Shown: positions 44,623 through 64,000, numbered from the stretch's first letter. The stretch is 64,000 nucleotides of DNA from a virus (IMGVR_UViG_3300034196_000151), one strand, 5' to 3'. The notes: generated from the letters alone by a model not told the origin. Program-made: numbers and translations.

Positions 44623-44631
44623 TCATCGTTT

Positions 44632-45706: not shown

Positions 45707-45719
45707 GAATTATCCTTTT

Positions 45720-47260: not shown

Positions 47261-47316
47261 GTAAATCTCCACATTAAGCATATTTGAATGTATTATATCA
47301 AAAACTGATTTTTAAT

Positions 47317-47637
47317 TCAAACTTTTCTTCGTTCTTGCATGATTTTATTCAGCATGTCGCCTTGAACATCGCAAAAACCCTTGGGCCAAGCCGACATTTC
47401 AAATTTATTGTCCATTGTGATTTCAACATCACCAAAATAAAAGACAACATCGTCCACACTGATTTTCTTTTCAGCCGCTGCCAAGCGAACTGCCGTGATG
47501 ACGTTAGCTGATGAGGTGACATAACTCACCACACCAAACTCACTCATGGAAATAAGTTCATCCACAAGCCCCACACAAAGGCCATCTGGGGTAGCGTCGT
47601 TATGGTTTGCATCATAAGTAATTCGAAGTTTAGTCAT
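47317..47637 (-). CDS. hypothetical protein
   Basis: 106-aa ORF between the two ligases. Confidence 0.45.
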   Translation of the reverse strand: MTKLRITYDANHNDATPDGLCVGLVDELISMSEFGVVSYVTSSANVITAVRLAAAEKKISVDDVVFYFGDVEITMDNKFEMSAWPKGFCDVQGDMLNKIMQERRKV

Positions 47638-47730
47638 AAGAACCTCTTGGATTAATCAACCGATTATACCTGAAATATTGTTTTTACACAACGAAAAAGA
47701 CAGTCAAAGACTGCCTTTTTATTTACTTCG

Positions 47731-48114
47731 TTATGCGGTGGCTTTCATTGCGGCCTTCTGTTCAAGATAGAAGGCATACAAGCGAGTGTATTCGATGGTA
47801 GCGGTGAATCGAGAATAGTTGCGTGGTGGCTCAGCATACGCTTCCGGTTCTTCGGTAATCCACCAAGAATTGAAGAGACTCCGCAGCTTTTCAGCCAAGG
47901 CCATCATGGTCACTGCCGAAACGTCTGGAAACATTTGAGCAATCAGTTTGAAGTTGGGCGGGCAACCAATCGTTTCTTCAATACCACACGAACCATCTTC
48001 AACCAACGACCAGCAAACAACCGATTCTTGTCCGATTCGGAACGGTGCCGTAAAATTCAAAAAACCTCGGCTAGTAATGTCTACGAGGGCAGCTTTTTCA
48101 CGAATGTTTTTCAT
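47731..48114 (-). CDS. hypothetical protein
   Basis: Start MKNIREK with CAGAGG SD. Confidence 0.45.
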   Translation of the reverse strand: MKNIREKAALVDITSRGFLNFTAPFRIGQESVVCWSLVEDGSCGIEETIGCPPNFKLIAQMFPDVSAVTMMALAEKLRSLFNSWWITEEPEAYAEPPRNYSRFTATIEYTRLYAFYLEQKAAMKATA

Positions 48115-48228
48115 GGGATAAACCTCTGTTTTGATGGGTTGATTATACCTCAATAAAACACGATTAGCAAACAAAAAACAGATTATTACGAAACAAAAAG
48201 CCCCGCAAATGCAGGGCTTCTTTTACAA

Positions 48229-49356: not shown

Positions 49357-49482
49357 TGTTAAAATCTCTACTGGTTTGAATGGATTGATTATACCGAAAA
49401 TGACCTTTCAACACAAGTCAAAAATGATATTTTTCAAAAGAAAAAGCAGCCCTAGTGGACTGCCTTTCAACATCGGATGAAC

Positions 49483-49761
49483 TTAAACCTTGAAGGTAAC
49501 ACCCGAGTAAGCCACTTCGCGGCAATCGACACTGACCGACAGGCGAGAGGCGTTGAAGATTTCGGCCAGTTGGGTTTCGTCTACCGCGTTTTCCAAGTAG
49601 AGTTCCGCGACACACGTTTTGCGTTCTTTGTCGTAGCTCAAAATCATGAAGTCATAAATCACTTTATGGTTGATTTCAGCGTCCAAATGAAAGAAGTCAT
49701 TGGTATCGTCACGAAGAACAGTATCCACTTGGAAAGTGATGGTTACGGTAGTGATAGCCAT
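49483..49761 (-). CDS. hypothetical protein
   Basis: 92-aa ORF. Confidence 0.45.
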   Translation of the reverse strand: MAITTVTITFQVDTVLRDDTNDFFHLDAEINHKVIYDFMILSYDKERKTCVAELYLENAVDETQLAEIFNASRLSVSVDCREVAYSGVTFKV

Positions 49762-49884
49762 GATGTTGAACCCCTATGTTTTTGATGAAGCCATTATAAC
49801 AAGGTAAAAAAACAAAAACAACATTTATCTTTCAATAGGGCAAAAAAAAGCAGCCCGAAGACTGCCTTTTTCAAACCTTGAAAA

Positions 49885-50139
49885 TCAAATCATCTTGCGA
49901 AGGTTTTTGACTTCTTTCTCTTTGTTGCCGAGCGTTAGCCATTCATCAATGGAATCAAGCAACACTGCTTTCGCCACAATTTTGCCCAACAGCAAATGTT
50001 TAGACGTATCGTCAGTGATATTGAGAGCACCCGAAGCAACAGCCTTTTCCAGATTAGCCTTGGCTTTGACGATTACCAGTCGAATCATCTCTTCGGCTTC
50101 GTCTACAACGCTTTCTTGTGGAGTTTGATCTTCAGTCAT
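49885..50139 (-). CDS. hypothetical protein
   Basis: 84-aa ORF. Confidence 0.45.
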   Translation of the reverse strand: MTEDQTPQESVVDEAEEMIRLVIVKAKANLEKAVASGALNITDDTSKHLLLGKIVAKAVLLDSIDEWLTLGNKEKEVKNLRKMI

Positions 50140-50196
50140 GGTAAGTCCTCTACATAAGTGTGATTTGAGTATACACTAAAATCTATTAAATGGCAA

Positions 50197-50772
50197 TCAA
50201 GTTGGATAAAAACCAAAGAAAATGAACAAGCTTTGCTTTTGTTTAACCGTTTTTAAGGCCGGGTCCATTTTGAAAACATTCGCCAAAGTTGGATCGCTCA
50301 ACTTCTTCGCAATATCCAAAGAGACGGAAAAACCCAGCAAGGCTTTTTCTTTGGCAAAATCGTTAGCCGCTTGTTTGGTCGTGAAGTCTTTCGATTCTTG
50401 ATTACCTTCAAAAAGCTTCCGATAGGTGACGGTGAAAACGTTCACCCATTTTTTGGTACCTATCTTGGTATTTTTGACGGTTTTAACACCACCAATCACC
50501 GAAACGTTTTTAACGGTGTGATTTGGGATCTCAACATAAAACATGTTACCCCATTTATCACAATAAGCATCCTTTTCCAGCAGCTTGTCAACGTAATCAA
50601 ACGCCGATGCTTCAGTTTTGACGCTGGGAGGAAGTGAAACACGGGTCAAACCACCCTTATTACGCAAGGCATGTGGATGCAGCCCCTGATAAACAGAATC
50701 CTCACTGGCTTCTTTGTAGGATTCCTGAGCATTAAGACCATGCCAAGCTTTTTGGTAAACCTGAGCACCCAT
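50197..50772 (-). CDS. hypothetical protein
   Basis: 191-aa ORF. Confidence 0.5.
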   Translation of the reverse strand: MGAQVYQKAWHGLNAQESYKEASEDSVYQGLHPHALRNKGGLTRVSLPPSVKTEASAFDYVDKLLEKDAYCDKWGNMFYVEIPNHTVKNVSVIGGVKTVKNTKIGTKKWVNVFTVTYRKLFEGNQESKDFTTKQAANDFAKEKALLGFSVSLDIAKKLSDPTLANVFKMDPALKTVKQKQSLFIFFGFYPT

Positions 50773-50891
50773 GACAATTCTCCCAATATTTACGATAGGT
50801 TATTATACAATAATCCAACAGTTATCGCAACAAAATTTAGTTTTTTAGAATGCAAAAAAGGCCAACTAGTGGCCTTTTTCTTTGTGTTGCT

Positions 50892-51740
50892 TTACTGCTT
50901 TGGTTGAACTACGGGTTGCGGGACTGTTACCCCTTGCGGGAGCGAACCACCCACTACGACCAGCATGTTCACATTGTCTTTCTTTTTGACCACTTCAACA
51001 ATTTCTTTCTGGATTTCGATTTCTCGACCTTTCAGGTATTGTTCAGGGGTCATTTTCATCTTGGTCATGTATTCATTGTCAGCGTCGGCTTTGTTGGTTT
51101 CAGCCTGCTTACGTTTCTTTTCAGCGTCTGCACGGGAGTCTTCGGTCAAAGCTCGTTGAATTTGGGCTTCTGTCCGTGCCGTTTCAGCCAACACTTCATC
51201 AGGAGGCATAATCGCACCGATAGTCACCGCAAGAATACGAACCGGAATGCCTTTTGCAACCACAATATCAACCATTCGCTTGTAAACCGCATCTTCACCA
51301 GCGTCAGTAACCTCTTGTTTCGTGGTCAACTCTTTAACTGTGTGTTGTCGAGCAAAGTCTCGCAGCATGTTTTGAAAGTCTTTTTTCAGGTTGTTTTCAT
51401 ACATGGAATTACCAAACTTCTCATGATAGATATAAGCCTGTTCGGGGATAAGTTCATAACGAACAATCGCTTTAAAGTCTACCGGAGTCGAGTTGATGGT
51501 TGCCAAGTCATTAAACGCTTCTTCTTTTTGAATAGGCTTAATGTCATAGATGTGCATCATCGAAGTTGGCGAGATGTAATAGCGATCACCACCTTTATAC
51601 ACCTGTTGGTCAACACCACCGGAACCAATGAACGGATGTTTTTCAAGAACACCCACAAAACTAGCGTCTACAGTTTCGGAACAACCACTGAGAGCAACCG
51701 ATGCCAGCAGAACAATAGAAGCAAAAATCTTTTTAATCAT
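50892..51740 (-). CDS. SPFH/band-7 (prohibitin-like) domain lipoprotein
   Basis: MIKKIFASIVLLASVALSGC lipobox; VRILAVTIGAIMPPDEVLAETARTEAQIQRAL and Ala/Glu/Lys-rich coiled region typical of SPFH proteins. Confidence 0.55.
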   Translation of the reverse strand: MIKKIFASIVLLASVALSGCSETVDASFVGVLEKHPFIGSGGVDQQVYKGGDRYYISPTSMMHIYDIKPIQKEEAFNDLATINSTPVDFKAIVRYELIPEQAYIYHEKFGNSMYENNLKKDFQNMLRDFARQHTVKELTTKQEVTDAGEDAVYKRMVDIVVAKGIPVRILAVTIGAIMPPDEVLAETARTEAQIQRALTEDSRADAEKKRKQAETNKADADNEYMTKMKMTPEQYLKGREIEIQKEIVEVVKKKDNVNMLVVVGGSLPQGVTVPQPVVQPKQ

Positions 51741-51809
51741 AACGTTTCCTTTTAGGGTTTAAGTTTGAGAAGTTTAGCATTTGTAACGTTTATAAACAAG
51801 CTTTATTTA

Positions 51810-52043
51810 TCAATAAAGCGGGGTTTGTTCAAATTCATCCAGTGTCTGGTTAGCCAGATCGAGGTCAGCTTTCAGTTGTTCACTGATTTCTTTACCTTGG
51901 GTGTCAGCGGTGACACTTTCAACAAGGCAACCCAACAGCGAAATAAGACGCTCATTTCGGGCCATTAGCTCTACCACTGCTTTGGCTTCGACAGTGTTAT
52001 TCGATTGGGATTCGGCTTGGTCTTCTTGAAGTTGACGTTTCAT
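51810..52043 (-). CDS. hypothetical acidic protein
   Basis: 77-aa ORF. Confidence 0.4.
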   Translation of the reverse strand: MKRQLQEDQAESQSNNTVEAKAVVELMARNERLISLLGCLVESVTADTQGKEISEQLKADLDLANQTLDEFEQTPLY

Positions 52044-52114
52044 GGTGACACCTCTTAATGGAAGTTGATTGTAACATTATTTTTCAAAAATCACAAACAT
52101 TTTGAATGTTTTGT

Positions 52115-52687
52115 TTATTTAAAAGACTTTTGAAGTTTGACAAAATCAGTCAGGAATTTATCATAGAATTCTTCCAAGAAAACACTGTGTTCCGCAATGT
52201 TTCTTGCAACTTCTGCGAAGAAGGCTTTGAATTCTTTTTGATACATGTCATGGCCTTCTGCACCAGCCCCCATTTTGAAGGTTTGATCCAACTGGTATTT
52301 GGCCGTGGTCGCCGCTTCGTAAATATTGATAACAGTGACCATTTTGGCATGGTTAAATGCAAACAGCTTGTCATTTTCAACTTTTGACGAAACAATCATC
52401 GCCATGTCGAGAATGGTAGGCACATTGTAGTGATCCCACAACTCACGCACACGATCATAAATGCCCAAATGATCATCATTGAAAGAATCATTCAGGTAAT
52501 CGTTTTCGGTATAACCAGCACGGTCACGGTCAGTATAGCCTGAATAGCCATACGAATCATAACCCTGATTGTCGAATTGAGATTCGGGCATAAGCCCATT
52601 ACCAAAACCACCACCGTTTTTCTCAAACCAGTCTTGATCTTGGCTATAAGAGCGGCTAACAGTGGGGGAATATTTTCCAACGCCCAT
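52115..52687 (-). CDS. hypothetical protein, paralog of 52800..53237
   Basis: Shared N-terminus MG(V/I)GKYSPTVS.SY..DQ.W(F/Y)EKNGGGFGNG; AAAGAGGA SD. Confidence 0.5.
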   Translation of the reverse strand: MGVGKYSPTVSRSYSQDQDWFEKNGGGFGNGLMPESQFDNQGYDSYGYSGYTDRDRAGYTENDYLNDSFNDDHLGIYDRVRELWDHYNVPTILDMAMIVSSKVENDKLFAFNHAKMVTVINIYEAATTAKYQLDQTFKMGAGAEGHDMYQKEFKAFFAEVARNIAEHSVFLEEFYDKFLTDFVKLQKSFK

Positions 52688-52799
52688 GTGTGTATCCTCT
52701 TTGATTTAGAAGCCTATCTTATCAAAAAACTGAAAAATAAGCAACCATTAAAACAAAAAAAACCTAGCCGGAGCTAGGTCTTTAATCGTATTGACAAAA

Positions 52800-53237
52800 T
52801 TAATCGAGCAGCAAGTCAGGATAAGCCTTAGTAATATCGGCTTTCAGGCCACGCTCAATCTCAGCAGCTTTTCGGAGAATGTCTTGAACTTCTGCAAGTT
52901 GACGGAAGGCTTCTTGCATTTCTGGATTAGCAGCCGCGTCTTCACGGGCCTTACGCATAGCAAGAATGCAGCGACCACCCCATTCAGACTGAACATCTTC
53001 ATGCAGTGGGTAATATGCTGAATCGCCATCCCATTGAGAACTAGCGGCGTAATCATTTTCATGATGACCCGCCCGGTCACGATCATCGGCGTTGTAGCCA
53101 TACGAATCGTAACCATCATCATCGTAATCAGAATCAGGGTTTTTACCATTGCCAAAACCGCCGCCATTTTTTTCATACCAAGCTTGATCTTTACGGTAGG
53201 AAGTGCTGACGGTTGGAGAATATTTACCAATGCCCAT
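52800..53237 (-). CDS. hypothetical protein, paralog of 52115..52687
   Basis: ATG at 53237 (MGIGKYSPTV). Confidence 0.5.
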   Translation of the reverse strand: MGIGKYSPTVSTSYRKDQAWYEKNGGGFGNGKNPDSDYDDDGYDSYGYNADDRDRAGHHENDYAASSQWDGDSAYYPLHEDVQSEWGGRCILAMRKAREDAAANPEMQEAFRQLAEVQDILRKAAEIERGLKADITKAYPDLLLD

Positions 53238-53334
53238 AATGTTCAACCTCTGTAATGTAGATGGCTATGATACCAAAAAACTGAAAAATACGCAAACATT
53301 AAAACAAAAGACCTAGCCGAAACTAGATATTTTT

Positions 53335-53913
53335 TCAATCTTCAATGTAAAGACGTTTCAAATAAGGCCGAACCTGATGATAAACGGTGTTGGCGTCTTC
53401 CACAGTTAACCCTTTATTATTCACAATGCTTTCAAGCTTTTCAATCCCTTTGTTATAGACATAAGCAGGCGTGTGCAAGTGATTAAAAGCAACTTTCCAG
53501 TCAAGTTCATCTGCAGTTGGGAATTGTTTAATGTAATCCGCCATAAACTGCTTTTCAAGGGTTTCATAGAAACGATGAAAATACTGTTTTGATTGTTCAA
53601 TGATTTCATCGACTGTAAAAATAGCAACAGGTAGAGAATACGGCGAATTACTCACCAAAATTTCCCATTCAATGAGAGCGGTTTCTGAGGTAATTACTTG
53701 CAGCTCGGTATAATTCTTTGGCAGTGATCTAAAGTAAACAAACAGCTTGCTAGAAGCCATACCAGCAACCACAGATCCAAAGGTTTGCCACGAAAACAGA
53801 ATGGTCTGGTATTTGGGATTTTGATGGTCTTTAAACATGCTACGAGCGACGGCAATACCGACTTCTTGAGCCAACTGTTCATCTTTTGTGTTTAAAACAG
53901 GATGGGTGTTCAT
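53335..53913 (-). CDS. hypothetical protein
   Basis: Start MNTHPVLN with AAGGAAC SD. Confidence 0.5.
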   Translation of the reverse strand: MNTHPVLNTKDEQLAQEVGIAVARSMFKDHQNPKYQTILFSWQTFGSVVAGMASSKLFVYFRSLPKNYTELQVITSETALIEWEILVSNSPYSLPVAIFTVDEIIEQSKQYFHRFYETLEKQFMADYIKQFPTADELDWKVAFNHLHTPAYVYNKGIEKLESIVNNKGLTVEDANTVYHQVRPYLKRLYIED

Positions 53914-54024
53914 CGTAAGTTCCTTAAATTTTCTCGATTGTATCATAAACAAGATTTTTTGTGAACCTATTTTTTTGCAAAAAAAAGCAACCTATCGCTA
54001 GATTGCTGTCTCTAACCTATGAAA

Positions 54025-54423
54025 TTAATCTTCGGAGTAATTCCACTTCCCATGATAACGGCTCATTTTTTCAGCCAGTTCTTTGAGAATGAAACCTTCC
54101 CCTTCACCCTTGTAGTTAACGAGCCAAACATAGGTCGAAACCTTCGCCATTGCTTCGGCTTGCTCACGGGTCATACCTTCATGGATGATTTCCAAGTCAG
54201 GACTGTCGGGAGCGTCAAAAAATTCATCATCATCCCGAAACAGCGGGTCAGCAGGTTCATGCTTGTAAACAGGTTCCATATGATAAGAAACCAGTTCATC
54301 CAGCATTTCTGGGTATTCTGAGAGTGTGAATTCTTCGGCCTTGAAGCTGGATGCATACACCTGTTCGGCATAATCCATTGCAGCTTGTCCCATCGGGCTA
54401 TTTAAAAATTCGTTAGTAAACAT
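54025..54423 (-). CDS. hypothetical acidic protein
   Basis: 132-aa ORF. Confidence 0.5.
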   Translation of the reverse strand: MFTNEFLNSPMGQAAMDYAEQVYASSFKAEEFTLSEYPEMLDELVSYHMEPVYKHEPADPLFRDDDEFFDAPDSPDLEIIHEGMTREQAEAMAKVSTYVWLVNYKGEGEGFILKELAEKMSRYHGKWNYSED

Positions 54424-54543
54424 TGTCGGTAATTCCTAATTGCGTTTGTTTATTTTAACAAAGAATGAGGCAAATTACAACAAAAAACTTAATTTTGAAT
54501 AAAAAAAAGTCAAAAGAAGATAATCCTTTAAACTTAAGGTTTC

Positions 54544-54735
54544 TTAATCATCTGGTTCATCTACTTTCGATCCCCATGATTGGATATCGTAGTAAGATGA
54601 GATTGGTTTTCGACTACCAACTTCAAGAACAAGCATTTCTTTTGTCAGATAAATAATATCTTTACTACCAGTCACAGCACGTTTAATCCAATAATAACCC
54701 GGTTCTGTTGGATGTTCGTCTGTCCATACATTCAT
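54544..54735 (-). CDS. hypothetical protein
   Basis: 63-aa ORF. Confidence 0.4.
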   Translation of the reverse strand: MNVWTDEHPTEPGYYWIKRAVTGSKDIIYLTKEMLVLEVGSRKPISSYYDIQSWGSKVDEPDD

Positions 54736-54794
54736 AGCAAATACTCCTACATGATGATCAAAAAACCCTCCGAAGAGGGCTTTTCTTTTGTTTT

Positions 54795-55112
54795 TCAGCT
54801 TTTGTCAGCTTTCAAGAAGAAGTTCTCTTCTTCCCATTTGAACTTCATGATCATATGCTGCATGGCAGGAACGAACTCGGCGGGCACTTCCCATGAAGAA
54901 GTCAGCGAGCCATCAGAACATTGCTCATCTACCTTATCACGACCACCCCAGCAAGAAATGCAGTCCAATGCATAGAACTGAGATTTCAGCAGTGCCGAAG
55001 CTTCACCCTGTTTGTAAAGCATCGAAGTCGTGCAATTAACCCAAACACGTTTAGTGCTGGTAAGCGTGTCAGAGACGTAGACCAAAGGCTTTTTTTCAAA
55101 GTTGAAAGGCAT
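54795..55112 (-). CDS. hypothetical protein
   Basis: 105-aa ORF; UUCG terminator aaaaaaccctccgaagagggc at ~54765-54795. Confidence 0.45.
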   Translation of the reverse strand: MPFNFEKKPLVYVSDTLTSTKRVWVNCTTSMLYKQGEASALLKSQFYALDCISCWGGRDKVDEQCSDGSLTSSWEVPAEFVPAMQHMIMKFKWEEENFFLKADKS

Positions 55113-55215
55113 TTTTTAATCCTTGATGATGTGTTTTGATGAACAGATTATAACGTAAAAACTCATTTTTAACAACCAATATTTTGGCTGAAATGAAAAA
55201 ACCGCCGAAGCGGTC

Positions 55216-55722
55216 TTATTCCTCAGTGCTGAGTGTGGCAACCTTTTCAAAGAAGCCACTGTCAGTCAACTTTTGTAAGATAACTTCACGCGAATCACGT
55301 TTGATTTGGTCATGATTCACATTGGTTTGCGGTGTCGAGTAACGATAGACAAGGCTAGTAATTTCAGCCGGAGTCAGTTTCAGGACAGCTTCAAGGCGAA
55401 CATCATTGTATTCCATTACCGCACCGAAAGGCATGACTTCTTCACCGGAGAGGTAATCCTTGATGACAAGGTGAGGACGTTTAGCCTTGGAAACATCTTG
55501 AATTGCGATACCAATACCAACAACAGGATTCGACCAGTCATTACCCACGGCAATAACAGGCTTACCAATCAAAACTTCCAAAGCAGCCCGTTCAATAACA
55601 TCTTCACGCCCACGGCGTTCTTTTTCTGATGCTGTCACAGCCGCTTGAGACATTTGATACATTTCAGCCGGGAACAGTGCTTGAAAGGTCAGAAACACTT
55701 TTTCTTTGATAGTGCTAAGCAT
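55216..55722 (-). CDS. hypothetical protein
   Basis: 168-aa ORF. Confidence 0.5.
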   Translation of the reverse strand: MLSTIKEKVFLTFQALFPAEMYQMSQAAVTASEKERRGREDVIERAALEVLIGKPVIAVGNDWSNPVVGIGIAIQDVSKAKRPHLVIKDYLSGEEVMPFGAVMEYNDVRLEAVLKLTPAEITSLVYRYSTPQTNVNHDQIKRDSREVILQKLTDSGFFEKVATLSTEE

Positions 55723-55785
55723 GGCGTTACTCCAAAAGATAAGGGGTACATTATATATAAAACCAAAATTTAAAGCAATTAGAAC

Positions 55786-55980
55786 TTAAAGAAAACTACC
55801 AAAAAGACCAAAGAGCGGCTTACCCAAAAGCCCCAAAAGGCACAGAACAATAGCCACTAAAAACAAGCCAGTGTTAAATCGCTGAGAGCGATAAATGCCG
55901 GAACGCATTTCGATCAACTGGTTCTCGCATGCAATGTGTTCATCACTGCCGCCACATTTAACACAATTACAAACAACCAT
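55786..55980 (-). CDS. zinc-ribbon protein with C-terminal TM helix
   Basis: Start MVVCNCVKCGG with GAAGGG SD. Confidence 0.4.
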   Translation of the reverse strand: MVVCNCVKCGGSDEHIACENQLIEMRSGIYRSQRFNTGLFLVAIVLCLLGLLGKPLFGLFGSFL

Positions 55981-56150
55981 GACAATACCCTTCACTTGAT
56001 GATTTCGACTATTATAGCAAAATACGAACAAAATAAAAAGCAGTTTTTAACTAAAAATAAATCAAAAAACACTTTTCAAACGCTTAAAATCTTGGTATAA
56101 TGACCCCACTGAAACAAACCAACCATACAAAACTTATTGAGGTGATACCA

Positions 56151-56273
56151 TGAAAGTTCAAAACTTCGTAGCAAAACACATGAACACCGTCAATAAGGCG
56201 GCAACGCATGTAGACAAGAAGCGTAAAGACAAAAACAAACGCGACAAGCGTGCTTACTTGAAGGAGATGTAAT
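56151..56273 (+). CDS. 40-aa highly basic protein, plus strand
   Basis: MKVQNFVAKHMNTVNKAATHVDKKRKDKNKRDKRAYLKEM; TGGTATAAT promoter at ~56110-56120, GAGGTGA SD, UUCG terminator at 56291-56320. Confidence 0.45.
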
Positions 56274-56290
56274 CCTTCGGTAAGTTGAAA

Positions 56291-56320
56291 AAGAAAAGGT
56301 GTCTTCGGACACCTTTTTTT
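56291..56320. terminator. bidirectional terminator with UUCG loop
   Basis: aaaAGGTGTCttcgGACACCTttttttt. Confidence 0.6.
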
Positions 56321-56337
56321 GTGCGTGTTGTTTGGGA

Positions 56338-56910
56338 TTAGAACAAGCTAAAAATACCTGCAACAGTGCCTGCCGTGCCAATAACATCCCAAATGTCAAT
56401 CGACCGAGAATCCTCACCAGAAGCGGTGCGGCTATATCGTGTTCGATCTGGAATTCGTTGGCCCATTCTAGACGGAGATCCCACAATTGACATCCAGATA
56501 TCACGATTCACATCGTGCGTATCCTTTGATTTCCCCAGCAGAACAAAATCGCCATTAGAACTCATGGCACCATTGAAAAGCTGAAAATCATCATTAACAG
56601 GAAATGATTTTTTAAAATGTTCCGGCATAGGTGCGTATCGGTTTTTAAATAGGAATTCAAGATATTTGACGTAAATATCATTAATGTTGGCTGATGGAAT
56701 AGATTCCGAATAGACAAACATGGAAACTTCATTTTTCTTATTGGAACCAATAATGACATTCTCATTGTCTTTTGAAAGGCGAAAGAAATTAAAGAAAAGC
56801 TTATTGTCAGGCAACTTTTGATAGCTGTAACCTTCAGCTTTTTTGGCATTCCACAAGGCTTGAACATCATCACCCAGCCCAATTTTTCTGATAGTTAGAC
56901 ACATAGTCAA
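56338..56910 (-). CDS. hypothetical protein
   Basis: 190-aa ORF. Confidence 0.5.
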   Translation of the reverse strand: MTMCLTIRKIGLGDDVQALWNAKKAEGYSYQKLPDNKLFFNFFRLSKDNENVIIGSNKKNEVSMFVYSESIPSANINDIYVKYLEFLFKNRYAPMPEHFKKSFPVNDDFQLFNGAMSSNGDFVLLGKSKDTHDVNRDIWMSIVGSPSRMGQRIPDRTRYSRTASGEDSRSIDIWDVIGTAGTVAGIFSLF

Positions 56911-57035
56911 TAACCTCCAATTTTCGCAATTATACTATAATTCTACAAAATAAACAATATTAGAAACCTACAAAATCTAAATTTAACGCACAAAAAAGAC
57001 CGAACATGTCGGCCTTTTTTATTGACTTCTGTGAT

Positions 57036-57587
57036 TTAGATGACAGTGAGAACACCGGCTTCATCAATGGTATAACCCATTTTCACAACAGCATCCAGAG
57101 CTTCTTTCAGTTGGCGTTGACGGAACTCTTTGTGGTCTTCATCAGTCAATGCCAGCCGAGTAACGACGATGCTAACATTATCTGGCAATGTCTCCCAAGT
57201 CCGATTCTTACCAGAAGTTTTGGGATGATAACGAATATCAGATCCCTTAATCACAAGAGTATTGTCTCGTATTTTTTCATCAATCATCCAATCAAGAGTT
57301 CCGAGTGAAATTTCAGCATAAGGATCTTCATGATTAAGGTGCAACACACCAGCAGCAGCCAGACGTTGACCCAACTGGCAAGCTTCCATAGAAAGTTCCG
57401 TCGAGCTAACAGTAACCGCCATACCAACAGGGCCAACCATATAGTTGATCAGGTATTTGTAGTCAGGGGCTGCATTGGTGTGCTGCAGAGCCGCCACAAT
57501 TTTTTCAAGCTTCAACTGAACAGCCAAGACAGCATTCACTGCAGACTGGGCGTCGGTTGTGTTCAGTGCAATTTTAACTTGAGTCAT
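57036..57587 (-). CDS. hypothetical protein, paralog of 43957..44532
   Basis: 183-aa ORF. Confidence 0.5.
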   Translation of the reverse strand: MTQVKIALNTTDAQSAVNAVLAVQLKLEKIVAALQHTNAAPDYKYLINYMVGPVGMAVTVSSTELSMEACQLGQRLAAAGVLHLNHEDPYAEISLGTLDWMIDEKIRDNTLVIKGSDIRYHPKTSGKNRTWETLPDNVSIVVTRLALTDEDHKEFRQRQLKEALDAVVKMGYTIDEAGVLTVI

Positions 57588-57641
57588 GATAGGATTTCCT
57601 ATTTCGTTTATGATGGGGTTATTGTATCAAAAAACAGAATT

Positions 57642-58061
57642 TTAGTCTACTTGTTTTTGCGTGTTTTTCAACACCCATTCTTCCCACTTTTGAACACGGG
57701 GCAAGCATGAAGACAATGCGTCTCTGTAATCTTTGTGAGATAAAGCAGAATCCAGCCGAACATGGGCCATATGATTTAAGTCAATGACGTCTTTTTGGGC
57801 GATATTAAGATCAATGATGTCACAACCACTGATGGTGAAAACATGCTCTTGATTGCCCACTAAACGGCCACCAAACAGGGAACGAGCGAGTAATGCCGCA
57901 AACTTACAGCTACCCGAACGATCACCATTGTAGACCATGCCACGCTCAAGGCACCGTTCTTCCCACAAGTAATCCAATGCAATGTTGACACGGATAAAGT
58001 TGTGTTCGGTGTAGGCGATTTTAGCAGGGTAAGTGCTACGAATGTCTTTAACTGAGAGCAT
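57642..58061 (-). CDS. hypothetical protein
   Basis: Start MLSVKDIR with GAAGG SD. Confidence 0.5.
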   Translation of the reverse strand: MLSVKDIRSTYPAKIAYTEHNFIRVNIALDYLWEERCLERGMVYNGDRSGSCKFAALLARSLFGGRLVGNQEHVFTISGCDIIDLNIAQKDVIDLNHMAHVRLDSALSHKDYRDALSSCLPRVQKWEEWVLKNTQKQVD

Positions 58062-58140
58062 GGTGCTGACCTTCAACCTAAATGTATAGGTAGATTATAC
58101 ACAAATTGACAATAAGACACAAGAAAAAACTTAAAAATGA

Positions 58141-58440
58141 TTAAGAATGAACATCCAGAATGGTTTCACAATCTTTAACCATCAATGCCATGTCAGCTTT
58201 AATGCTTTCAATTTTGGAAAAATCCTTTTCTTTCACTTTTTCAATCCAGACTTCAAAGCTGTTTCGATAATTTTTCTTCAAACTCTCAAAACCATTGACG
58301 AGTTGAGCCAACGAAAAACCTTTGCGGTAAAGAAACAGGCGACCACTCCATTCATAGGCAGTATAGCCATTGTCTTCAAAGACCAGTTTATAGGTTTCGT
58401 GAATAACGGCTTTGGTTGGTGCTGCAGTATGATAAGGCAT
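58141..58440 (-). CDS. hypothetical protein
   Basis: 99-aa ORF. Confidence 0.45.
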   Translation of the reverse strand: MPYHTAAPTKAVIHETYKLVFEDNGYTAYEWSGRLFLYRKGFSLAQLVNGFESLKKNYRNSFEVWIEKVKEKDFSKIESIKADMALMVKDCETILDVHS

Positions 58441-58533
58441 GATAAACCTCCAAAATTTTGTAAATTATACCACAAAACTTAAAAAAGATAAACAAAAAAC
58501 CCGCACTAGGCGGGCTTTTTAACACCGTTACAA

Positions 58534-58872
58534 TTAGTAGTAGGTGCGGTTATACATGCGGTTGGTGGTGCGGCGGAGCTGTTCTTCAAAAATCCGACGC
58601 TGACCACTCGACAAGCAGCGATCTCGGCTCTCTTCAATGTTAGCGATACGTTTCTGGAAGGTTTGTTGGGCTTTGACTGCTGACTTTTGAGAGGAAGCAA
58701 AGCGAACATCGGTTTCTTTCTGAATATAGGCATTCTGAGCCTTTTTATCAGCAGTCACAATGCATTTGCGTTCGATTTGACGCTCTTGATAAGAACCATA
58801 CTGACCAGAAGACATGCAGCCGGTCATCATTACAAGGGCAAGAGCAGCAAAAACAATTTTCATTACTTTCAT
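58534..58872 (-). CDS. lipoprotein
   Basis: MKVMKIVFAALALVMMTGC lipobox; AGAAGGA SD; type B structured leader upstream. Confidence 0.5.
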   Translation of the reverse strand: MKVMKIVFAALALVMMTGCMSSGQYGSYQERQIERKCIVTADKKAQNAYIQKETDVRFASSQKSAVKAQQTFQKRIANIEESRDRCLSSGQRRIFEEQLRRTTNRMYNRTYY

Positions 58873-58983
58873 GGTCGTATCCTTCTCGTATCAATTAAGG
58901 TCGAATGAGCAATTACAAGGGGAAAGGCTTACTGGGTTGCTCGCCCCTTGCTGCTTCGATGGAGTAATTATATCAATATCGAC

Positions 58984-59358
58984 CTAGATAATCAAGGTTT
59001 TTGGTTCATTTCTTTTAATAAGTTCGCAAAAAAAGCTGGTCATGAATTTGAGTTTCTTCCAAAAACCTTTTGGAGAAAATTGAGAACTGTGATAGGTATA
59101 CAAAGTATTTCCTTTCCAATGGTCAATCACCATACCACCACGAAAAATCATCAGAGTGACTGAGTTATAGTCATACTTGTAATAAGTGATTTTACCAGAA
59201 ACAGGATGAATAACTGGCTGACTGGTTGACTTGCTAAATTTAATTCTGGCTCCAACTCTGTTAAATTTGTCCTTGCTGAAATATTCAACAGGCAAAGAGT
59301 AACCAAGAATCATACCAACCAGAAATCGCATCAACAAAATTTGAAAGAAGATGATCAT
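58984..59358 (-). CDS. N-terminally anchored membrane protein
   Basis: 124-aa ORF with N-terminal TM helix. Confidence 0.45.
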   Translation of the reverse strand: MIIFFQILLMRFLVGMILGYSLPVEYFSKDKFNRVGARIKFSKSTSQPVIHPVSGKITYYKYDYNSVTLMIFRGGMVIDHWKGNTLYTYHSSQFSPKGFWKKLKFMTSFFCELIKRNEPKTLII

Positions 59359-59361
59359 GCA

Positions 59362-59733
59362 TTATTCCTCAATATAGCAACGTTTAACAATTTTAAGAGC
59401 TTTTTTAACTTCTTTTTCCCATTCTTTATCACTGACTTCAACGAGTGTTCTGACAAATTCCAGAGCTTTGGTTTCGTCCAAACCTAATACAAGGTCTTCA
59501 TCACTTTCATCAAGTACTACAATAGGTGGATAAGCTCCATCAATGTCGATTTGACAACCATCCAGAGACAGCCATGCATGTTCGATATTTTTTATCGACA
59601 AATCATCTTCTGTGCGAATTTGAATTTCACCACCAAACGTTCGCCACAAAGCGACTGCCAGAAAAATAGATTTTGCAGACAGGTATTCTTCTGAGATTTC
59701 ATTAGGAACGCTGTCTTTAATTTGTTTCATCAT
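59362..59733 (-). CDS. hypothetical protein
   Basis: Start MMKQIKD with TGGAGTG SD. Confidence 0.45.
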   Translation of the reverse strand: MMKQIKDSVPNEISEEYLSAKSIFLAVALWRTFGGEIQIRTEDDLSIKNIEHAWLSLDGCQIDIDGAYPPIVVLDESDEDLVLGLDETKALEFVRTLVEVSDKEWEKEVKKALKIVKRCYIEE

Positions 59734-59781
59734 GGGCACACTCCAAGTAGGCTTTGAGTATAACAAAAACTTAGAAATAAA

Positions 59782-60246
59782 TCAATCTTGAACGTAGTTT
59801 TTGAAGGGTTTTAGCCTGTCTTTTTGATAATGTTTGAACTTCCCAATAGTGATATGTCCTTGGTCTGTTCCCAAAACATTATAGTATTCACGAATTTTAA
59901 AAAACTCGGCTGAATAACAGTTTATCCATACATGGGAATCATTCCAGAACAATTCATGGGTGTAATGAAGTTCAACAGGCTGTTGGTCAAGCCAGCCCCA
60001 CGGTTTAGACGTGTCTGTATTGGTATAACCTTTCAAAACCGAACAATGCGGTTCCCAGTTGGGTTTATCTAACTCAACGCCATAACGCTGATAAAAAAGA
60101 TGGCGATAGTAGGCCGCAATATCCGTTTCTACGGTGATAACCGCCCAATGCTCAATGTTATTTTTCATTGTCCCACGGTCAGGGTCATAAACAATGGTGC
60201 CTTCCGTTTCAAATTCAAAACAACGATGTCTAAGTGTAAAGTTCAT
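59782..60246 (-). CDS. 2H phosphoesterase superfamily protein (LigT/CPDase-like; possibly Acb1-like)
   Basis: Two H-x-(S/T)-x motifs (EPHCSVLKG and GHITIGKF) ~65 aa apart in a 154-aa protein. Confidence 0.5.
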   Translation of the reverse strand: MNFTLRHRCFEFETEGTIVYDPDRGTMKNNIEHWAVITVETDIAAYYRHLFYQRYGVELDKPNWEPHCSVLKGYTNTDTSKPWGWLDQQPVELHYTHELFWNDSHVWINCYSAEFFKIREYYNVLGTDQGHITIGKFKHYQKDRLKPFKNYVQD

Positions 60247-60321
60247 AATAAAAATCTCAAAAAAAAAGGAGATCCGAAGATCCCCTTGATTATACAGTTT
60301 TTTGAAAGGGCCGTCAACCGA

Positions 60322-60846
60322 TTAGTCGGGTTGGGAACCAAGGAATACCGCACTTACATCAAGGCACAAGCCTTTGCGGTTTTTGTCGAAGTTAATATCG
60401 ACAAAGTTTTCAAGCCATTCTTTGTTGGCACGGCCTTTTTGTTGGCCTTTCGTATCTTCCATACGAGTAACAAACAGTTTCATACCCAAGAAGTGAGTGC
60501 AAACATACACAACATCTGCTTTTTCAAGCTCTCGGCAGAAAATGTCATGCGGTTCACGGTAAACGTCAGGGTCGATTTTGTTACCGACTTTTGCGGCAAG
60601 CTTGACGATAGCAGGCAGCGAAGTTGGCATGTCAATTTCATCAATTTCGATAGCGGCGGATCGGTTATCCTTAATAGCGGTCAACAGATATTTGGAAAGC
60701 GTGTTAGCTTTGTGGGCCTGATCCCTGAGCAAGAAGCTCAATCCTTTGATTTTGTTGGTCGCACCAGAAAACAGATCGTTGAGTTCGTCAACACTGATGT
60801 TTTTGTCTTCAATAATCAATGTCGCCTTGATTGTTTTATTAGCCAT
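60322..60846 (-). CDS. hypothetical protein
   Basis: Start MANKTIK; palindromic TGTATAAT promoter at 60878-60897. Confidence 0.5.
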   Translation of the reverse strand: MANKTIKATLIIEDKNISVDELNDLFSGATNKIKGLSFLLRDQAHKANTLSKYLLTAIKDNRSAAIEIDEIDMPTSLPAIVKLAAKVGNKIDPDVYREPHDIFCRELEKADVVYVCTHFLGMKLFVTRMEDTKGQQKGRANKEWLENFVDINFDKNRKGLCLDVSAVFLGSQPD

Positions 60847-60877
60847 TTGACACTCCAAAAATATGTTTATAAGAAAG

Positions 60878-60897
60878 AAACCTGATTATACAGGTTT
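60878..60897 (-). promoter_or_regulatory. -10 element inside a perfect palindrome AAACCTG-TATAAT-CAGGTTT
   Basis: Plus strand aaacctgattatacaggttt; 7-bp arms exactly flank the -10 for gene 60322..60846. Confidence 0.45.
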
Positions 60898-60960
60898 CCA
60901 TCATGTTTATCAACAAAAATAAGATTTAAAACTTAAAAAAATGAGTTCGATCTATTTTTT

Positions 60961-61251
60961 TTATGAAACGGCCCATTCATCTATATATTTTTTAAATTTA
61001 TGAAGAATGTCGTTCTCCATAGATTCAATTGTGCTAATAAGAACAGTCACAGTCATAGTTGGAATGGCGATTCCATCACAATCATAGGAAGTGTCGAATG
61101 CTTTAACTTCAACATAATGAGAATGCGGTTTTTTTACCTTGATCGCAAAGTCAAAATCAATTTCATTTTTCAACGATACTGGAAATAGATTTTCAACTTT
61201 TTCTTTGAAAGACAAATCATTTAGAAATGTTTCTATTTCAATAATTTCCAT
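60961..61251 (-). CDS. small protein downstream of tnpB with HUH-like and Tyr motifs (possible minimal Y1 HUH fold)
   Basis: 96 aa; KKPHSHYVEV (H-x-H followed by hydrophobic residues) and C-terminal KKYIDEW; starts 9 nt after the tnpB stop. Confidence 0.45.
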   Translation of the reverse strand: MEIIEIETFLNDLSFKEKVENLFPVSLKNEIDFDFAIKVKKPHSHYVEVKAFDTSYDCDGIAIPTMTVTVLISTIESMENDILHKFKKYIDEWAVS

Positions 61252-61259
61252 AACATGAA

Positions 61260-62996
61260 CTACCCCGCCCTGAAGGACGAAGTTTCTTGGGTTTTTGAAA
61301 CCTTTCCCAATCGCTGACGTTCATTGTCAACTTCAAACAAAGCGGTCAGCTTCACTCGCACGGTTTCTCTTTTCATTTTGGATGGACTGTACTGCCCATC
61401 TTTTAACAGGTGAAAAGTGAGACGAAGAACTTCTTCGGTTATTCTGTTTCTTACATTTTTTGCTGCATTCTGATCAGCGTCTTCTTTATGACCACAAAAA
61501 TTACAATGAAAACTTCTTCCTTGTCTGACTGTGTGTTCCACACAGTGACACTTTGAACAGGTTTTCGATGTATAACTTGGGGTGGTCAAATGAACTCGAA
61601 TGCCTTTATTATTCGCTTGTTCTTGAAACCAATCTTTAATACTTGATAATCTCAATAAGCGAATAAGCTTTGAATATTTTATATTTAATGTTTCATCTTT
61701 GATGAAAGAAGCTTTACATTGTGAAAGATTGAGATCTTCTAATACAATGTCGGTTATTCCATCATCTATTAGGCTTTTTAATGTCTTTGATATAAGTTCT
61801 TTAAAGTGAAATTCAACACCACCTAATAGCTTATTAAATTGGGTTTGTTCATAGGTTGTTAATTGTTTGAACCCTTTCTTTTCAAAAGATTGTAGAGACT
61901 TTACAACCTTTTGAAGATATTCACGATTATAATCAATGGCTATTTCTCGATCATGAAAAGCAATGGTGCAAAAGTTTGAAGCAACATTAATATCAATACC
62001 GCACACAGCTTTTTTATCAATGATACTGTCTTTTTCTAATGGTTTGAAGTATTCTTTTTCATCTTCATAGGTTAAGCCAATTTCAATTCTATTTTTTCGA
62101 TTAAGACGAACCGTATGAATAGCGTCAAGATCAAAATCATTAATATCGCCATGATATTTAGGATTGAAAGCCAATGGAACATGGATATGTTCCTTCCCAA
62201 TCCTAAAATTATACCAATATTTGTACTCATTTGTTTCATCAACATGAAGATAAGAATGTTTAGTTTGTCCGATTTTAGGTATTTTCATATAAGACCCAGT
62301 TGAAAACACAATCGGTGATTTCATGGATTGTAACATTCGTATCTGTTTTCTAAGTAAAAGTGCTTTAATTCTATCCCAAAGGAAAACTTCAACACCATCT
62401 GTCGTAAAATGTCTTTTAGTTCTTAATGCATTAAGTGTTGAATTAAAATTCTCTATGTCTTTAATTTTTTTTGGATTCTCTTCACTTTCTTTATGTGCTT
62501 TTAAAACAGAATCAAGCATAGAAGAATCAACATAGATTAACCAATTTGACAAATTGGTTAATGCAGTAGTTTTGTGAATCACTTCTGTTTTTTTAATATC
62601 ACCTTTTACTGCAATAACTTCACCCACACTGTTTGTAACTTTTCGCTTATATCGAGTGACTTTATATTCTTTTTGAATGACAAACTTTTGATTGTCGGTG
62701 AGTTTATCTACCCAATTAGAGTAAAAATCAATAATTTGTTGGTACATTTTTTGAACTTCCCAAGAATACAATTCAGGGCAATTGTGTTGTTTCGCATGGG
62801 AAATAAGTGTATTTTTAGAAGTCGAAGAAAGAAGTGAAAGTTTATGTTCAAAGACATATTGAGAAATTTCATTTTTAAGGGATTTAACAAAAGAAAAATG
62901 CTCAACAAAACGCTCTGTCTTCTTCGAATTGACAATCGAAGAAGCAGAAATACGTTTAGTTTTAATCTTTTTTTTGTCAGAGCTACCGTAAGCCAT
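61260..62996 (-). CDS. tnpB: TnpB/Cas12-like RuvC plus zinc-finger protein (IS200/IS605 OrfB superfamily; putative RNA-guided nuclease)
   Basis: 578 aa from ATG 62996 (AGGAAA SD); RuvC-I AVCGIDINV, RuvC-II ITDIVLEDLNL, Zn ribbon CSKCHC...CNFCGH followed by RuvC-III EDADQNAAKN; ~31% GC; the track's 12 extra N-terminal residues are a TTG read-through of the promoter. Confidence 0.75.
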   Translation of the reverse strand: MAYGSSDKKKIKTKRISASSIVNSKKTERFVEHFSFVKSLKNEISQYVFEHKLSLLSSTSKNTLISHAKQHNCPELYSWEVQKMYQQIIDFYSNWVDKLTDNQKFVIQKEYKVTRYKRKVTNSVGEVIAVKGDIKKTEVIHKTTALTNLSNWLIYVDSSMLDSVLKAHKESEENPKKIKDIENFNSTLNALRTKRHFTTDGVEVFLWDRIKALLLRKQIRMLQSMKSPIVFSTGSYMKIPKIGQTKHSYLHVDETNEYKYWYNFRIGKEHIHVPLAFNPKYHGDINDFDLDAIHTVRLNRKNRIEIGLTYEDEKEYFKPLEKDSIIDKKAVCGIDINVASNFCTIAFHDREIAIDYNREYLQKVVKSLQSFEKKGFKQLTTYEQTQFNKLLGGVEFHFKELISKTLKSLIDDGITDIVLEDLNLSQCKASFIKDETLNIKYSKLIRLLRLSSIKDWFQEQANNKGIRVHLTTPSYTSKTCSKCHCVEHTVRQGRSFHCNFCGHKEDADQNAAKNVRNRITEEVLRLTFHLLKDGQYSPSKMKRETVRVKLTALFEVDNERQRLGKVSKTQETSSFRAG

Positions 62997-63015
62997 TAGT
63001 TTTCCTATAAAAAGT

Positions 63016-63053
63016 CTTGCTAAATTATACAATGTATTCGATAATAAAGCAAG
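63016..63053 (-). promoter_or_regulatory. tnpB promoter TTGCTT-17-(TG)TATAAT flanked by a 13-bp imperfect inverted repeat
   Basis: -10 at 63024-63029, -35 at 63047-63052; arms tCTTGCTaaATTAT (63015-63028) and ATAATaaAGCAAGc (63041-63054). Confidence 0.5.
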
Positions 63054-63163
63054 CTAAAAAGTAAAGAAAACAAAAAAACAAGAAAATACTTATTCCCCAC
63101 CTGAAGGAAGGGTTTTTGTATTTTTTAGATTGCTTTCTGTCGGATAAAACCTCTTAAAATGAA

Positions 63164-63796
63164 TTATTTTTTCAAGCCAACCACATACATCAAAGCTTCT
63201 ACTTGCTCAATGCGAGAGTTGTCACATTGCACATGGAGGCTGAGTGATGGATACTTGTTGCCAGTAAGGCGATGAAACTCTCTCAGGAAGGATTGACGGA
63301 TTTCACCCACCAGCGGGTCAAAGTAGATGTAGTCAGTGCGTTGGCTGATTTCGCAATATTGAAAGCCAAGATTGTCATAGGCTTCTTGCAAAAAGTGAAG
63401 ATCCGCTTCTTCGATGATCTTTTTGCCCACTCGCATTTTTCGTGTCAACAGGCTTTCTGGAACATTGCGGATGTTGTCAAACAGTTTAGCTTTGAGTTCA
63501 GCAACTGCCAAATCCATTCGCTCATGTTCAAGCTTCCTTTCAAGCTGAGCCTGAGCGACAATGCGATTCATTTCAGTCAGCGAAGAAATAATGCTTTGAC
63601 GCAAAACTTCTACACGGCTGGGAAGCGTGGCTGTTTCAAAATTATTGAAAGCGTTCAAAATTTCATCTGGCCCAATGACAAACCCGTCTTCGGCGTAAAT
63701 GTCGAGAACATTCACAAGTGGCTGTCGATCTTTTTGAAGATTCTGAATTTGAATATCGGTGTCTTTTGCCAGTTGCTGAGCTTTTTCAGGGTTCAT
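63164..63796 (-). CDS. hypothetical protein, third member of the 36080/36850 family
   Basis: KMRVGKKIIEEADLHFLQEAYDNLGFQYCEISQRTDYIYFDP aligns with LIDKRKITPEDHATLVDVYKTLGITHY...RDIVYYNP. Confidence 0.5.
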   Translation of the reverse strand: MNPEKAQQLAKDTDIQIQNLQKDRQPLVNVLDIYAEDGFVIGPDEILNAFNNFETATLPSRVEVLRQSIISSLTEMNRIVAQAQLERKLEHERMDLAVAELKAKLFDNIRNVPESLLTRKMRVGKKIIEEADLHFLQEAYDNLGFQYCEISQRTDYIYFDPLVGEIRQSFLREFHRLTGNKYPSLSLHVQCDNSRIEQVEALMYVVGLKK

Positions 63797-64000
63797 GATA
63801 AATGTCCGTAGCTATTTAAGTATCGCTAGTATAACAGATAAAAACTATTTTTCAAAGCAATGAATTGACTGTTTAAATGAAAATAAATTTGATTTTTTTG
63901 ACTTATTGTAGTATTATCGAGACTATTTGAGAGGATTAACATGGACAAAAGGCGGATAGAAAATTATAAAAAGATGGCGGATAATTCTGCGGCCATAATC

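Follow-up and report, generated by a model that had tools for sequence, protein, structure and literature searches.

The TnpB proteins of ISDra2 and ISFba1 together with their omega RNA (right-element RNA, reRNA) are experimentally characterised RNA-guided nucleases that drive transposon retention. A second described group is IS1341, which has a single tnpB and no tnpA. RNAs of the HgcC/sot0042 type are transcribed in sense orientation where tnpB genes of the IS1341 type have their 3' end, and they contain a hairpin with a UUCA tetraloop (Gomes-Filho et al., PMC4615843). Here, a stretch of 64,000 nucleotides from the virus IMGVR_UViG_3300034196_000151 (the window) was analysed, for which an earlier note had proposed a TnpB/Cas12-like gene in the segment 60961-63140. 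In all likelihood the segment contains a 1,889-bp insertion sequence (IS) of the IS200/IS605 family and of the tnpB-only IS1341 type, which is inserted 3' of a TTTAT in a 23-nt spacer of a very large phage. Unless stated otherwise, the features of the element and of its flanks are on the minus strand.

Like the members of the IS1341 group, the element lacks terminal inverted repeats, leaves its target unduplicated, has a fixed pentanucleotide on the 5' side of its insertion site and has subterminal hairpins at both ends. The described IS1341 examples are from archaeal and bacterial chromosomes and encode a TnpB of about 400 aa, whereas here the carriers are huge-phage-like genomes and the protein has 578 aa. 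With the TnpB proteins of ISDra2 and ISFba1 it shares the D-E-D triad of RuvC, the zinc-ribbon TNB, the WED/REC/RuvC fold, a guide scaffold (predicted in the window element) for which the 3' part of the gene and the right end code together, and a T-rich target-adjacent motif (TAM) of 5 nt located 5' of the target, for which TTTAT is the candidate here. The TAM of ISDra2 is TTGAT. ISDra2 has tnpA in cis and a TnpB of 408 aa, whereas the window element has no tnpA and the similarity between the two proteins is limited to the C-terminal RuvC/TNB part.

Phages often encode TnpB (PMC12607003), and the element is of a known kind that has been documented in phages before. Viral TnpB/IS605-like genes include ISCaje1 of the Campylobacter phage CPt10 and those of the cyanophage A-1(L), Thermus TMA/YS40, the landfill megaphages and Fanzor2 of giant viruses, and the window TnpB is at most 21-28% identical to these viral proteins. 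The tnpB of A-1(L) is identical to host copies, indicating a recent pick-up (10.64898/2026.02.14.705889), whereas the clade found here is without detected cellular relatives and is present in several copies in huge genomes.

Ends, target site and mobility of the element

The limits of the element were defined by comparison with other copies. About 90 full-length TnpB homologues were present in the database searched, and in copies with 45-100% protein identity the DNA similarity to the window was restricted to one block. This interval, 61255..63143, comprises the left end, the promoter, tnpB, the predicted guide-RNA scaffold and the right end. The right ends of all 17 distinct copies read ...GGGCGGRGTAR-TTCAT, one of them with GTGA-TTCAT, and the flanks were unrelated from the next base on. 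The terminal TTCAT (61255..61259), invariant in 17 of 17 copies, forms the last bases of the element, and the right end falls 5 nt past the tnpB stop codon. On the other side, the flanking pentanucleotide TTTAT (63144..63148), the candidate TAM, lies directly 5' of the left end. The left junctions showed TTTAT followed by C in 11 of 12 independent cases and ATTAT followed by C in one. The element ends CCGACAG... and ...GTAGTTCAT are not inverted repeats of each other. With 32% GC the element is AT-rich compared with its left flank (40%), its right flank (37%) and the whole window (39%), as the earlier note had observed. The note had also been right to consider an IS605-type element in minus orientation at 60961-63140, but the limits had to be corrected to 61255-63143.

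Following the IS200/IS605 paradigm and the variant at locus L050, TTTAT is favoured as the target-derived pentanucleotide, because one ATTAT variant was found at the left compared with 17/17 TTCAT at the right; this assignment is not proven.

The same site is empty in relatives whose upstream 210-aa gene is 96-98% identical (13 contigs from independent samples). In these relatives 22 nt are located between the 210-aa gene and the homologue of a 96-aa open reading frame (ORF), and the site reads TAGGAG-TTTTTGTC-ATG. Deleting the element from the window restored an intergenic spacer of 23 nt, AAGAGG-ttttat/gtt-ATG, where the slash marks the rejoined flanks. Since the removal leaves a normal Shine-Dalgarno sequence with normal spacing, there is no target-site duplication. 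According to this reconstructed empty site the downstream 96-aa ORF (60961..61251), included in the segment of the earlier note, is flanking target DNA outside the element, and its original Shine-Dalgarno sequence AAGAGG (63151-63156) is now separated from it by the insertion.

An insertion into a gene was found at locus L021, where a related element splits a gene into ORFs of 70 and 48 aa (L021:2217-4966). When the two flanks were joined they aligned without gaps to an intact tandem paralogue of 262 aa located just upstream (L021:1325-2113). The intact paralogue has TTCAT where the interrupted copy has TTTAT, and is equally ambiguous as to which of the two pentamers is derived from the target.

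Two copies located about 730 kb apart on one contig of 1.54 Mb were 97% identical in their DNA and had unrelated flanks, which points to a fairly recent transposition. Together, at least 13 independent insertions were observed, all with identical end positions. Judged from its presence or absence among close relatives and from these at least 13 sites, the element apparently behaves as an active mobile element. The domestication that the earlier note had considered is not supported by these findings, in particular by the presence/absence pattern in near-identical phages and the 97%-identical copies in one genome.

A Y1 TnpA was absent from the element, from the 108 window ORFs and from the 3-6 kb around any copy examined, and no CRISPR-like array was found in the 64-kb window or beside any copy examined; the earlier note had seen neither of them in the window. 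An IS607-type element was also considered and rejected, as a serine recombinase is not present.

The left end contains a subterminal hairpin, CCCTTCC-TTCA-GGTGGGG (63095..63112), which is conserved in 11 copies and is followed by a T-rich tract, the promoter, the Shine-Dalgarno sequence and the ATG. Variants of this hairpin were a compensatory base-pair insertion in L006 and CCCCATCA...TGGTGGGG in L015 and L050. The hairpins of the left and the right end have the same loop, TTCA, and compensatory changes have preserved each of them.

The element's own promoter (63024..63052) consists of the -35 sequence TTGCTT (63047-63052), a 17-nt spacer and the extended -10 sequence TGTATAAT (63024-63031), and is followed by the Shine-Dalgarno sequence AGGAAA of tnpB (63001-63006), both as given in the earlier note. 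The -35 core CTTGC and the -10 positions TAT..T were invariant across 11 copies, whereas the sequence of the 17-nt spacer was variable. In a generic sigma-70 scan the tnpB promoter was not listed because its -35 sequence matches at 3 of 6 positions only, and the promoter-like sites of the region were not enriched over shuffles. Among these sequence comparisons, the conservation in 11 copies is the better evidence for the promoter. An imperfect inverted repeat, AGCTTGCT (63048-63055) and AGCAAGaCT (63013-63021), brackets the promoter (63013..63055), with one arm over the -35 sequence and the other just downstream of the -10 sequence. Its core GCTTGC/GCAAGC was found in 10 of 11 copies, and no covariation was detected among the 11 copies. 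The repeat may be an autoregulatory operator. The earlier note had offered a left-end hairpin as a second possibility, but the repeat is internal and the true left-end hairpin is the one at 63095-63112.

The TnpB protein and its predicted guide-RNA scaffold

The tnpB gene (61260..62996) encodes 578 aa plus the stop codon when read from its ATG, and was recognised by its motifs and family matches; an upstream TTG start would give a product of 590 aa. All the RuvC and zinc motifs quoted by the earlier note were present: AVCGIDINV at residue 330 (D335), ITDIVLEDL at 414 (E420) and EDADQNAAKNV at 505 (D508), and the zinc ribbon CxxC...CxxC at residues 480-501 with CSKCHC at 480 and CNFCGH at 498. 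In an alignment of 16 homologues with 46-90% identity, D335, E420 and D508 and the four cysteines of the zinc ribbon were invariant. The 578-aa TnpB therefore looks intact and under selection, and its conservation suggests an active nuclease.

The Pfam profile PF07282 (Cas12f1-like_TNB) matched the protein with 57.4 bits (E 1.7e-15), which passes the cut-off of 26.3 bits. The NCBIfam profile guided_TnpB matched at E 6.4e-21 over residues 99-518, corresponding to profile positions 7-389 of 389, and phrog_506, annotated as transposase, matched at E 1e-21. By these profile matches the protein is a divergent member of the TnpB superfamily. Outside the TnpB profile are an N-terminal extension of about 98 aa, which the earlier note had expected from the length of the protein, and a C-terminal tail of about 60 aa, the codons of which double as RNA scaffold. 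The AlphaFold model had a mean pLDDT (predicted local distance difference test) of 69, with low values for residues 233-317, and is thus of moderate quality only.

When the model was compared with the PDB by Foldseek, the top 36 matches were all TnpB, Cas12 or Fanzor, with low template-modelling scores. The best match was AsCas12f (E 4.5e-9), followed by the TnpB proteins of ISFba1 (E 1e-7) and ISDra2 (E 3e-6). The viral structure models matching it were TnpB-like 'transposases' only. In a profile search of the PDB sequences AsCas12f was found at E 2.6e-13 and ISDra2 at E 0.002, with the similarity limited to the C-terminal RuvC/TNB part, and the same search showed no special affinity to the phage-specific Cas-lambda and Cas-phi. 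Cas12f (Cas14) thus gives the best PDB matches in sequence and structure, has a similar size and has its RuvC-I motif similarly far in. Unlike Cas12f, the gene in the window has neither a CRISPR array nor a tracrRNA context, and its predicted guide is set by the end of the transposon; the identity is 12-17%.

Some JGI members of a TnpB cluster at 90% identity, fragments of 448-492 aa, are labelled 'transcription elongation factor Elf1', a label that is probably wrong and due to the zinc ribbon. In Pfam, residues 48-99 of TnpB likewise gave a weak match to Elf1 (E 0.012).

The predicted omega RNA scaffold of about 184 nt (61255..61438) extends over the last 59 codons of tnpB, the stop codon and 5 further nt; the earlier note had expected a structured RNA here, at 61263-61420. 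From its 5' end it was folded into the helices S1 (61422-61438), S2 (61411-61417 with 61369-61375) and S3 (61381-61400), a long-range helix of GAAACC (61362-61367) with GGUUUC (61297-61302), and the helices S4 (61334-61358), S5 (61313-61331), S6 (61287-61310) and S7 (61262-61283). S6 pairs UUGGG with CCCAA and would form a pseudoknot with the long-range helix. S7 is the last RNA stem and at the same time the terminal hairpin of the right end, ACUUCGUCC-UUCA-GGGCGGGGU (61262..61283), with the core CUUCGUCC-UUCA-GGGCGGGG.

The pairing was then examined among the copies. In 16 distinct copies the fold with 7 helices and 51 pairs was 90.6% paired, compared with 34-50% when the partners were slid by 1-3 columns, and 18 pairs had changes on both sides, compared with 4-9 in the slid controls. 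These values were reached by 0 of 500 shuffles on every measure. Independently, RNAalifold found 9 compensatory pairs in the last 113 nt, and single-sequence folds of 17 copies gave one common series of hairpins. The S6 pairing, which the earlier note had pointed out as a TTGGG...CCCAA hairpin, becomes UCUGA/UCAGA, UGGGG/CCCCA and UUGGUU/AACCAA in other copies, so this hairpin is real and undergoes compensatory changes; this pseudoknot helix, where the alignment shifts, was left out of the pair counts. Pairing in the terminal hairpin reached 99% over the 16 copies, among which CG/AU and UG/CG/UA replace one another. Many of the pairs are G-U, and the fold is therefore specific to the sense strand. 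In L021 the ORF ends 48 nt earlier, and the terminal hairpin and GUAGUUCAU are kept there as non-coding sequence. A covariance model (R1) built from 15 copies recovered the divergent copies L050 at 94 bits and L049 at 40 bits, both of which were outside its training set. In the window the RNA covariance model found one genuine copy, and the search for solo or degenerate guide-RNA modules gave only weak matches of at most 21 bits. Taken together, these comparisons of the copies, which speak for structural conservation only, indicate that a conserved, covarying sense-strand RNA fold ends exactly at the right end of the element.

The best of the weak matches, with 21 bits, was spurious. The minus-strand genes have a strong intrinsic terminator at 21786-21822, ATCCGGCCTGATGGTCGGAT followed by TTTTTTGCTTTTG, with a hairpin loosely like those at the ends of the element, and the match corresponds to its reverse complement.

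HgcC and the sense overlapping transcripts (sotRNAs) are now understood as TnpB omega RNAs. Like the IS1341 sotRNAs, the element has a sense RNA module over the 3' end of tnpB that finishes with a G+C-rich hairpin with a UUCA tetraloop. The consensus of the IS1341 RNA hairpin is CccCGCCCUUcAGGGCGggG, compared with CUUCGUCCUUCAGGGCGGGG in the window element. The terminal hairpin of the right end aligned to the terminal hairpins of HgcC (RF00062) and sot0042 (RF02656) and was near-identical to the sotRNA consensus; the archaeal IS1341 sotRNAs and HgcC share the UUCA-tetraloop motif (PMC4615843). In a permissive Rfam scan of the element, HgcC and sot0042 were the only families matched over the right end, on the gene strand, and the likeness is limited to the first hairpin, a GAU and the terminal UUCA hairpin. 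At gathering thresholds Rfam found two tRNAs only.

The profiles match, the RuvC residues are intact, and the segment is an indel with defined ends and a structured RNA; the outcomes that the earlier note had named as speaking against its proposal did not occur.

The predicted guide and competing explanations

In the TnpB paradigm, the sequence that immediately follows the right end on its 3' side serves as the guide. For the window element this predicts a 20-nt guide, GUUAUGGAAAUUAUUGAAAU (61235..61254), consisting of 3 nt of the spacer and the first 17 nt of the 96-aa ORF, so that it would reach into the start of this ORF as the earlier note had supposed. Within the window the guide sequence does not occur a second time with 3 or fewer mismatches, and no sequence was shared among the right flanks of the 17 copies.

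The proposed mechanism follows the established paradigm of ISDra2-type TnpB systems, together with PMC10055086 and PMC10690162. A transcript from the element promoter, or processed tnpB mRNA, would yield an omega RNA that runs beyond 61255 and into the flank by about 16-20 nt. TnpB with this RNA would cut DNA in which TTTAT is followed by the guide sequence (TTTAT-GTTATGGAAATTATTGAAAT). Such an element-free allele could be left by excision or be carried by a sibling phage in the course of a co-infection. With an element-bearing genome as the template, recombinational repair would then copy the element in, resulting in retention or homing. Movement to new TTTAT sites would need a Y1 TnpA provided in trans by the phage or the host.

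The element-free alleles seen all read TTTTTGTC-ATGATTTTT... and contain neither TTTAT nor a match to the guide. A cleavable empty allele with TAM and guide sequence was found neither in the window nor in the sampled loci nor in IMG/VR. As far as the left junction, the window was 94-96% identical to the element-free relatives; past the right junction the identity was about 74%, for at least 2 kb (compared segments 63146-64000 and 59083-61168). The haplotype thus breaks at the site of the insertion. In protein sequence, the 96-aa ORF and its counterpart in these relatives have an identity of about 50%. A lack of cleavable alleles together with a break in identity would be expected if cleavable alleles had been converted; the data fit this without proving it. 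The pattern has a functional analogy in the T4-like homing endonuclease genes, free-standing selfish nucleases between phage genes that show presence/absence polymorphism and a flank divergence starting at the insertion or cleavage site. The homing endonucleases use protein recognition and GIY-YIG or HNH domains, whereas a RuvC nuclease would here be directed by an RNA guide and a TAM. A tentative idea, which we hold with considerable doubt, is that a TnpB lineage confined to huge phages acts as an RNA-guided gene drive and passes from one co-infecting phage genome to another with little help from a transposase.

The neighbourhood is a hot spot of gene turnover. In the relatives L038 (4134-4424) and L039, on a 208-kb contig, the 95/96-aa gene is missing and a terminator-like hairpin, CACCCACCTTAAAGAAGGGG..., is found instead. 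Another copy of the TnpB element lies about 9 kb away on the same 208-kb contig (L029).

Several points weigh against the interpretation as an RNA-guided IS1341-type element. A TnpA that would catalyse the transposition step was not found in the element, among the window ORFs or in the 3-6 kb around the copies examined. The empty sites are too diverged at the junction to settle whether TTTAT or TTCAT is the target-derived pentamer. The guided_TnpB score of 75.1 bits is below the curated whole-protein cut-off of 100 bits. The RNA structure was derived from the same sequences as the pair counts, in a region that is also coding, and the counts overstate the independent events because the 16 sequences represent about 6 clades. 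In Rfam, HgcC scored 19 bits against a gathering threshold of 50 and sot0042 12 bits against 88; at scores this far below gathering the element RNA resembles these families but is not counted among them. All that is said of the RNA and its ends, of the guide length and of cleavage is inferred, and the mosaic breakpoint at the insertion could be a coincidence in a highly mosaic region.

The element might alternatively serve the phage as a weapon, with TnpB and its guide destroying or excluding element-free competitor phages in a way comparable to the marker exclusion by T4 homing endonucleases. The detection of the clade only on huge-phage-like contigs, with none in 185,579 cellular species genomes, the strong conservation of protein and RNA, the sharp haplotype break where the element is inserted and a predicted guide that targets the start of a phage gene would all suit such a role. 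However, the element behaves as a selfish IS, with many unrelated sites and the split gene in L021, most close relatives are without it, and its guide is set by the landing site, so that no target is chosen. The weapon differs from the selfish IS1341-type element only in who benefits, on which sequence data cannot decide; we regard it as rather unlikely.

It was also considered whether tnpB is a passenger, in which case the conserved hairpins would be single-stranded DNA recognition sites for TnpA and no functional guide RNA would exist. The TnpA proteins of the IS200/IS605 family recognise subterminal DNA hairpins, similar hairpins are present at both ends here, DNA hairpins of this type tolerate G-T pairs, and the guide RNA is deduced from the sequence. 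But TnpA needs the terminal hairpin only, whereas compensatory changes here preserve six more helices, which extend about 184 nt into the coding region. No variation was seen at the nuclease residues, and the layout agrees with that of the HgcC/sotRNA transcripts. A passenger is therefore improbable.

Even less probable is a TldR-like protein, that is, a nuclease-dead or nuclease-independent TnpB acting as RNA-guided transcriptional repressor of the downstream 96-aa gene. The predicted guide does span the ribosome-binding region and the start codon of this gene, and an inverted repeat surrounds the element promoter. TldRs, however, have lost RuvC residues and mobile-element ends, whereas this element is mobile, has kept its ends and shows no variation at D335, E420 and D508; at other sites the right flanks are unrelated and include the interiors of coding regions. 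A Cas12f-like miniature effector of the CRISPR-Cas12 kind, or a nuclease borne by an intron (IStron), can practically be set aside. The 578-aa size, the Cas12f-like best structural matches and the gene interrupted by one copy might suggest them, but no repeat array lies in the window or beside any copy examined, no group I/II intron matched at E <=10 (Rfam, 60900-63300), and the left end, which contains the promoter, has 150 nt and so offers too little room for a group I intron.

Distribution, genomic neighbourhood and significance

The occurrence of the element was examined in phage, cellular and metagenome sequences. By megablast, 60000-64000 and 40000-60000 of the window gave no match to 50,697 phage records, and tblastn against the phage records found distant TnpBs only, with 23-47% identity over partial length. 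In the 185,579 cellular species genomes the TnpB clade was searched for by pattern and tblastn and by the exact right-end motif, and none was found; these scans detect close relatives only, so that the term phage-restricted covers this clade and not distant TnpBs. The clade was seen on one IMG/VR contig of 290 kb and on metagenome contigs of up to 1.86 Mb, and close relatives of the insertion locus on contigs of 160-210 kb.

Copies of the element on contigs of 1.3-1.9 Mb include L006, L009 and L010 (Ga0308158_10000001, 1,859,102 bp), L014 and L018 on Ga0247725_1000001 (1,539,155 bp), and one on the ENA contig k141_1011963 (1,281,823 bp). The sampled neighbourhoods on these contigs are rich in ORFans like the window, with matches only to DUF2201, NADAR, DUF4326 and DEDDh_C. 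To our knowledge the largest published phage genome has about 735 kb. If these contigs are phages they would be far above this size; otherwise they could be cells, giant elements or misassemblies.

The window itself is densely filled with small ORFs, 85 of 109 on the minus strand, and has few family matches. Among these are two T4 Rnl1-type RNA ligases, a dCMP deaminase, SPFH, DUF2807 and two tRNAs. The ligase genes are paralogous and lie about 1 kb apart on the minus strand (46142-47281 and 48232-49356); they match Pfam RNA_lig_T4_1 at E 1.5e-7 and 7e-27, and phrog_562. A window RNA ligase is about 30% identical to those of T4-like phages (RnlA) and of a 309-kb Xanthomonas jumbo phage. The tRNA genes are tRNA-Met (22808-22884) and tRNA-Leu (23174-23258), and together with the RNA ligases they may point to a module for tRNA repair or counter-defence. 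The stretch that separates the 96-aa ORF from the next gene contains a perfect bidirectional hairpin at 60876-60899, GAAACCTG-ATTATA-CAGGTTTC. On the minus strand there is a strong sigma-70-like promoter at 60913-60885, TTGATA-17-TATAAT, which matches at 11 of 12 positions.

The current understanding of TnpB elements is left unchanged by these results. This lineage stands out because it is apparently limited to huge-phage-like genomes, in which several copies occur side by side, because its protein is Cas12f-like in size, and because of the T-rich TTTAT motif and the position at a mosaic breakpoint. The locus presents a complete and apparently active TnpB element in a jumbo phage, for which protein, promoter, scaffold, candidate TAM and natural target have been mapped. 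As a compact, AT-adapted nuclease with a T-rich candidate TAM, this TnpB could be screened as a genome-editing tool, and it adds a data point on phage-resident TnpB in relation to the miniature Cas12 families of huge phages. If the lineage does spread as a gene drive, all but the resistant alleles would have been lost to conversion, with their flanks co-converted, and the drop in identity from about 95% to about 74% together with the resistant element-free alleles would be the footprint of the drive in the population. In that case the enlarged protein would be a phage-resident intermediate on the way from TnpB to a phage-specific miniature Cas12. The element may offer a natural test case for the homing of TnpB between viral genomes and for its effect on phage mosaicism.

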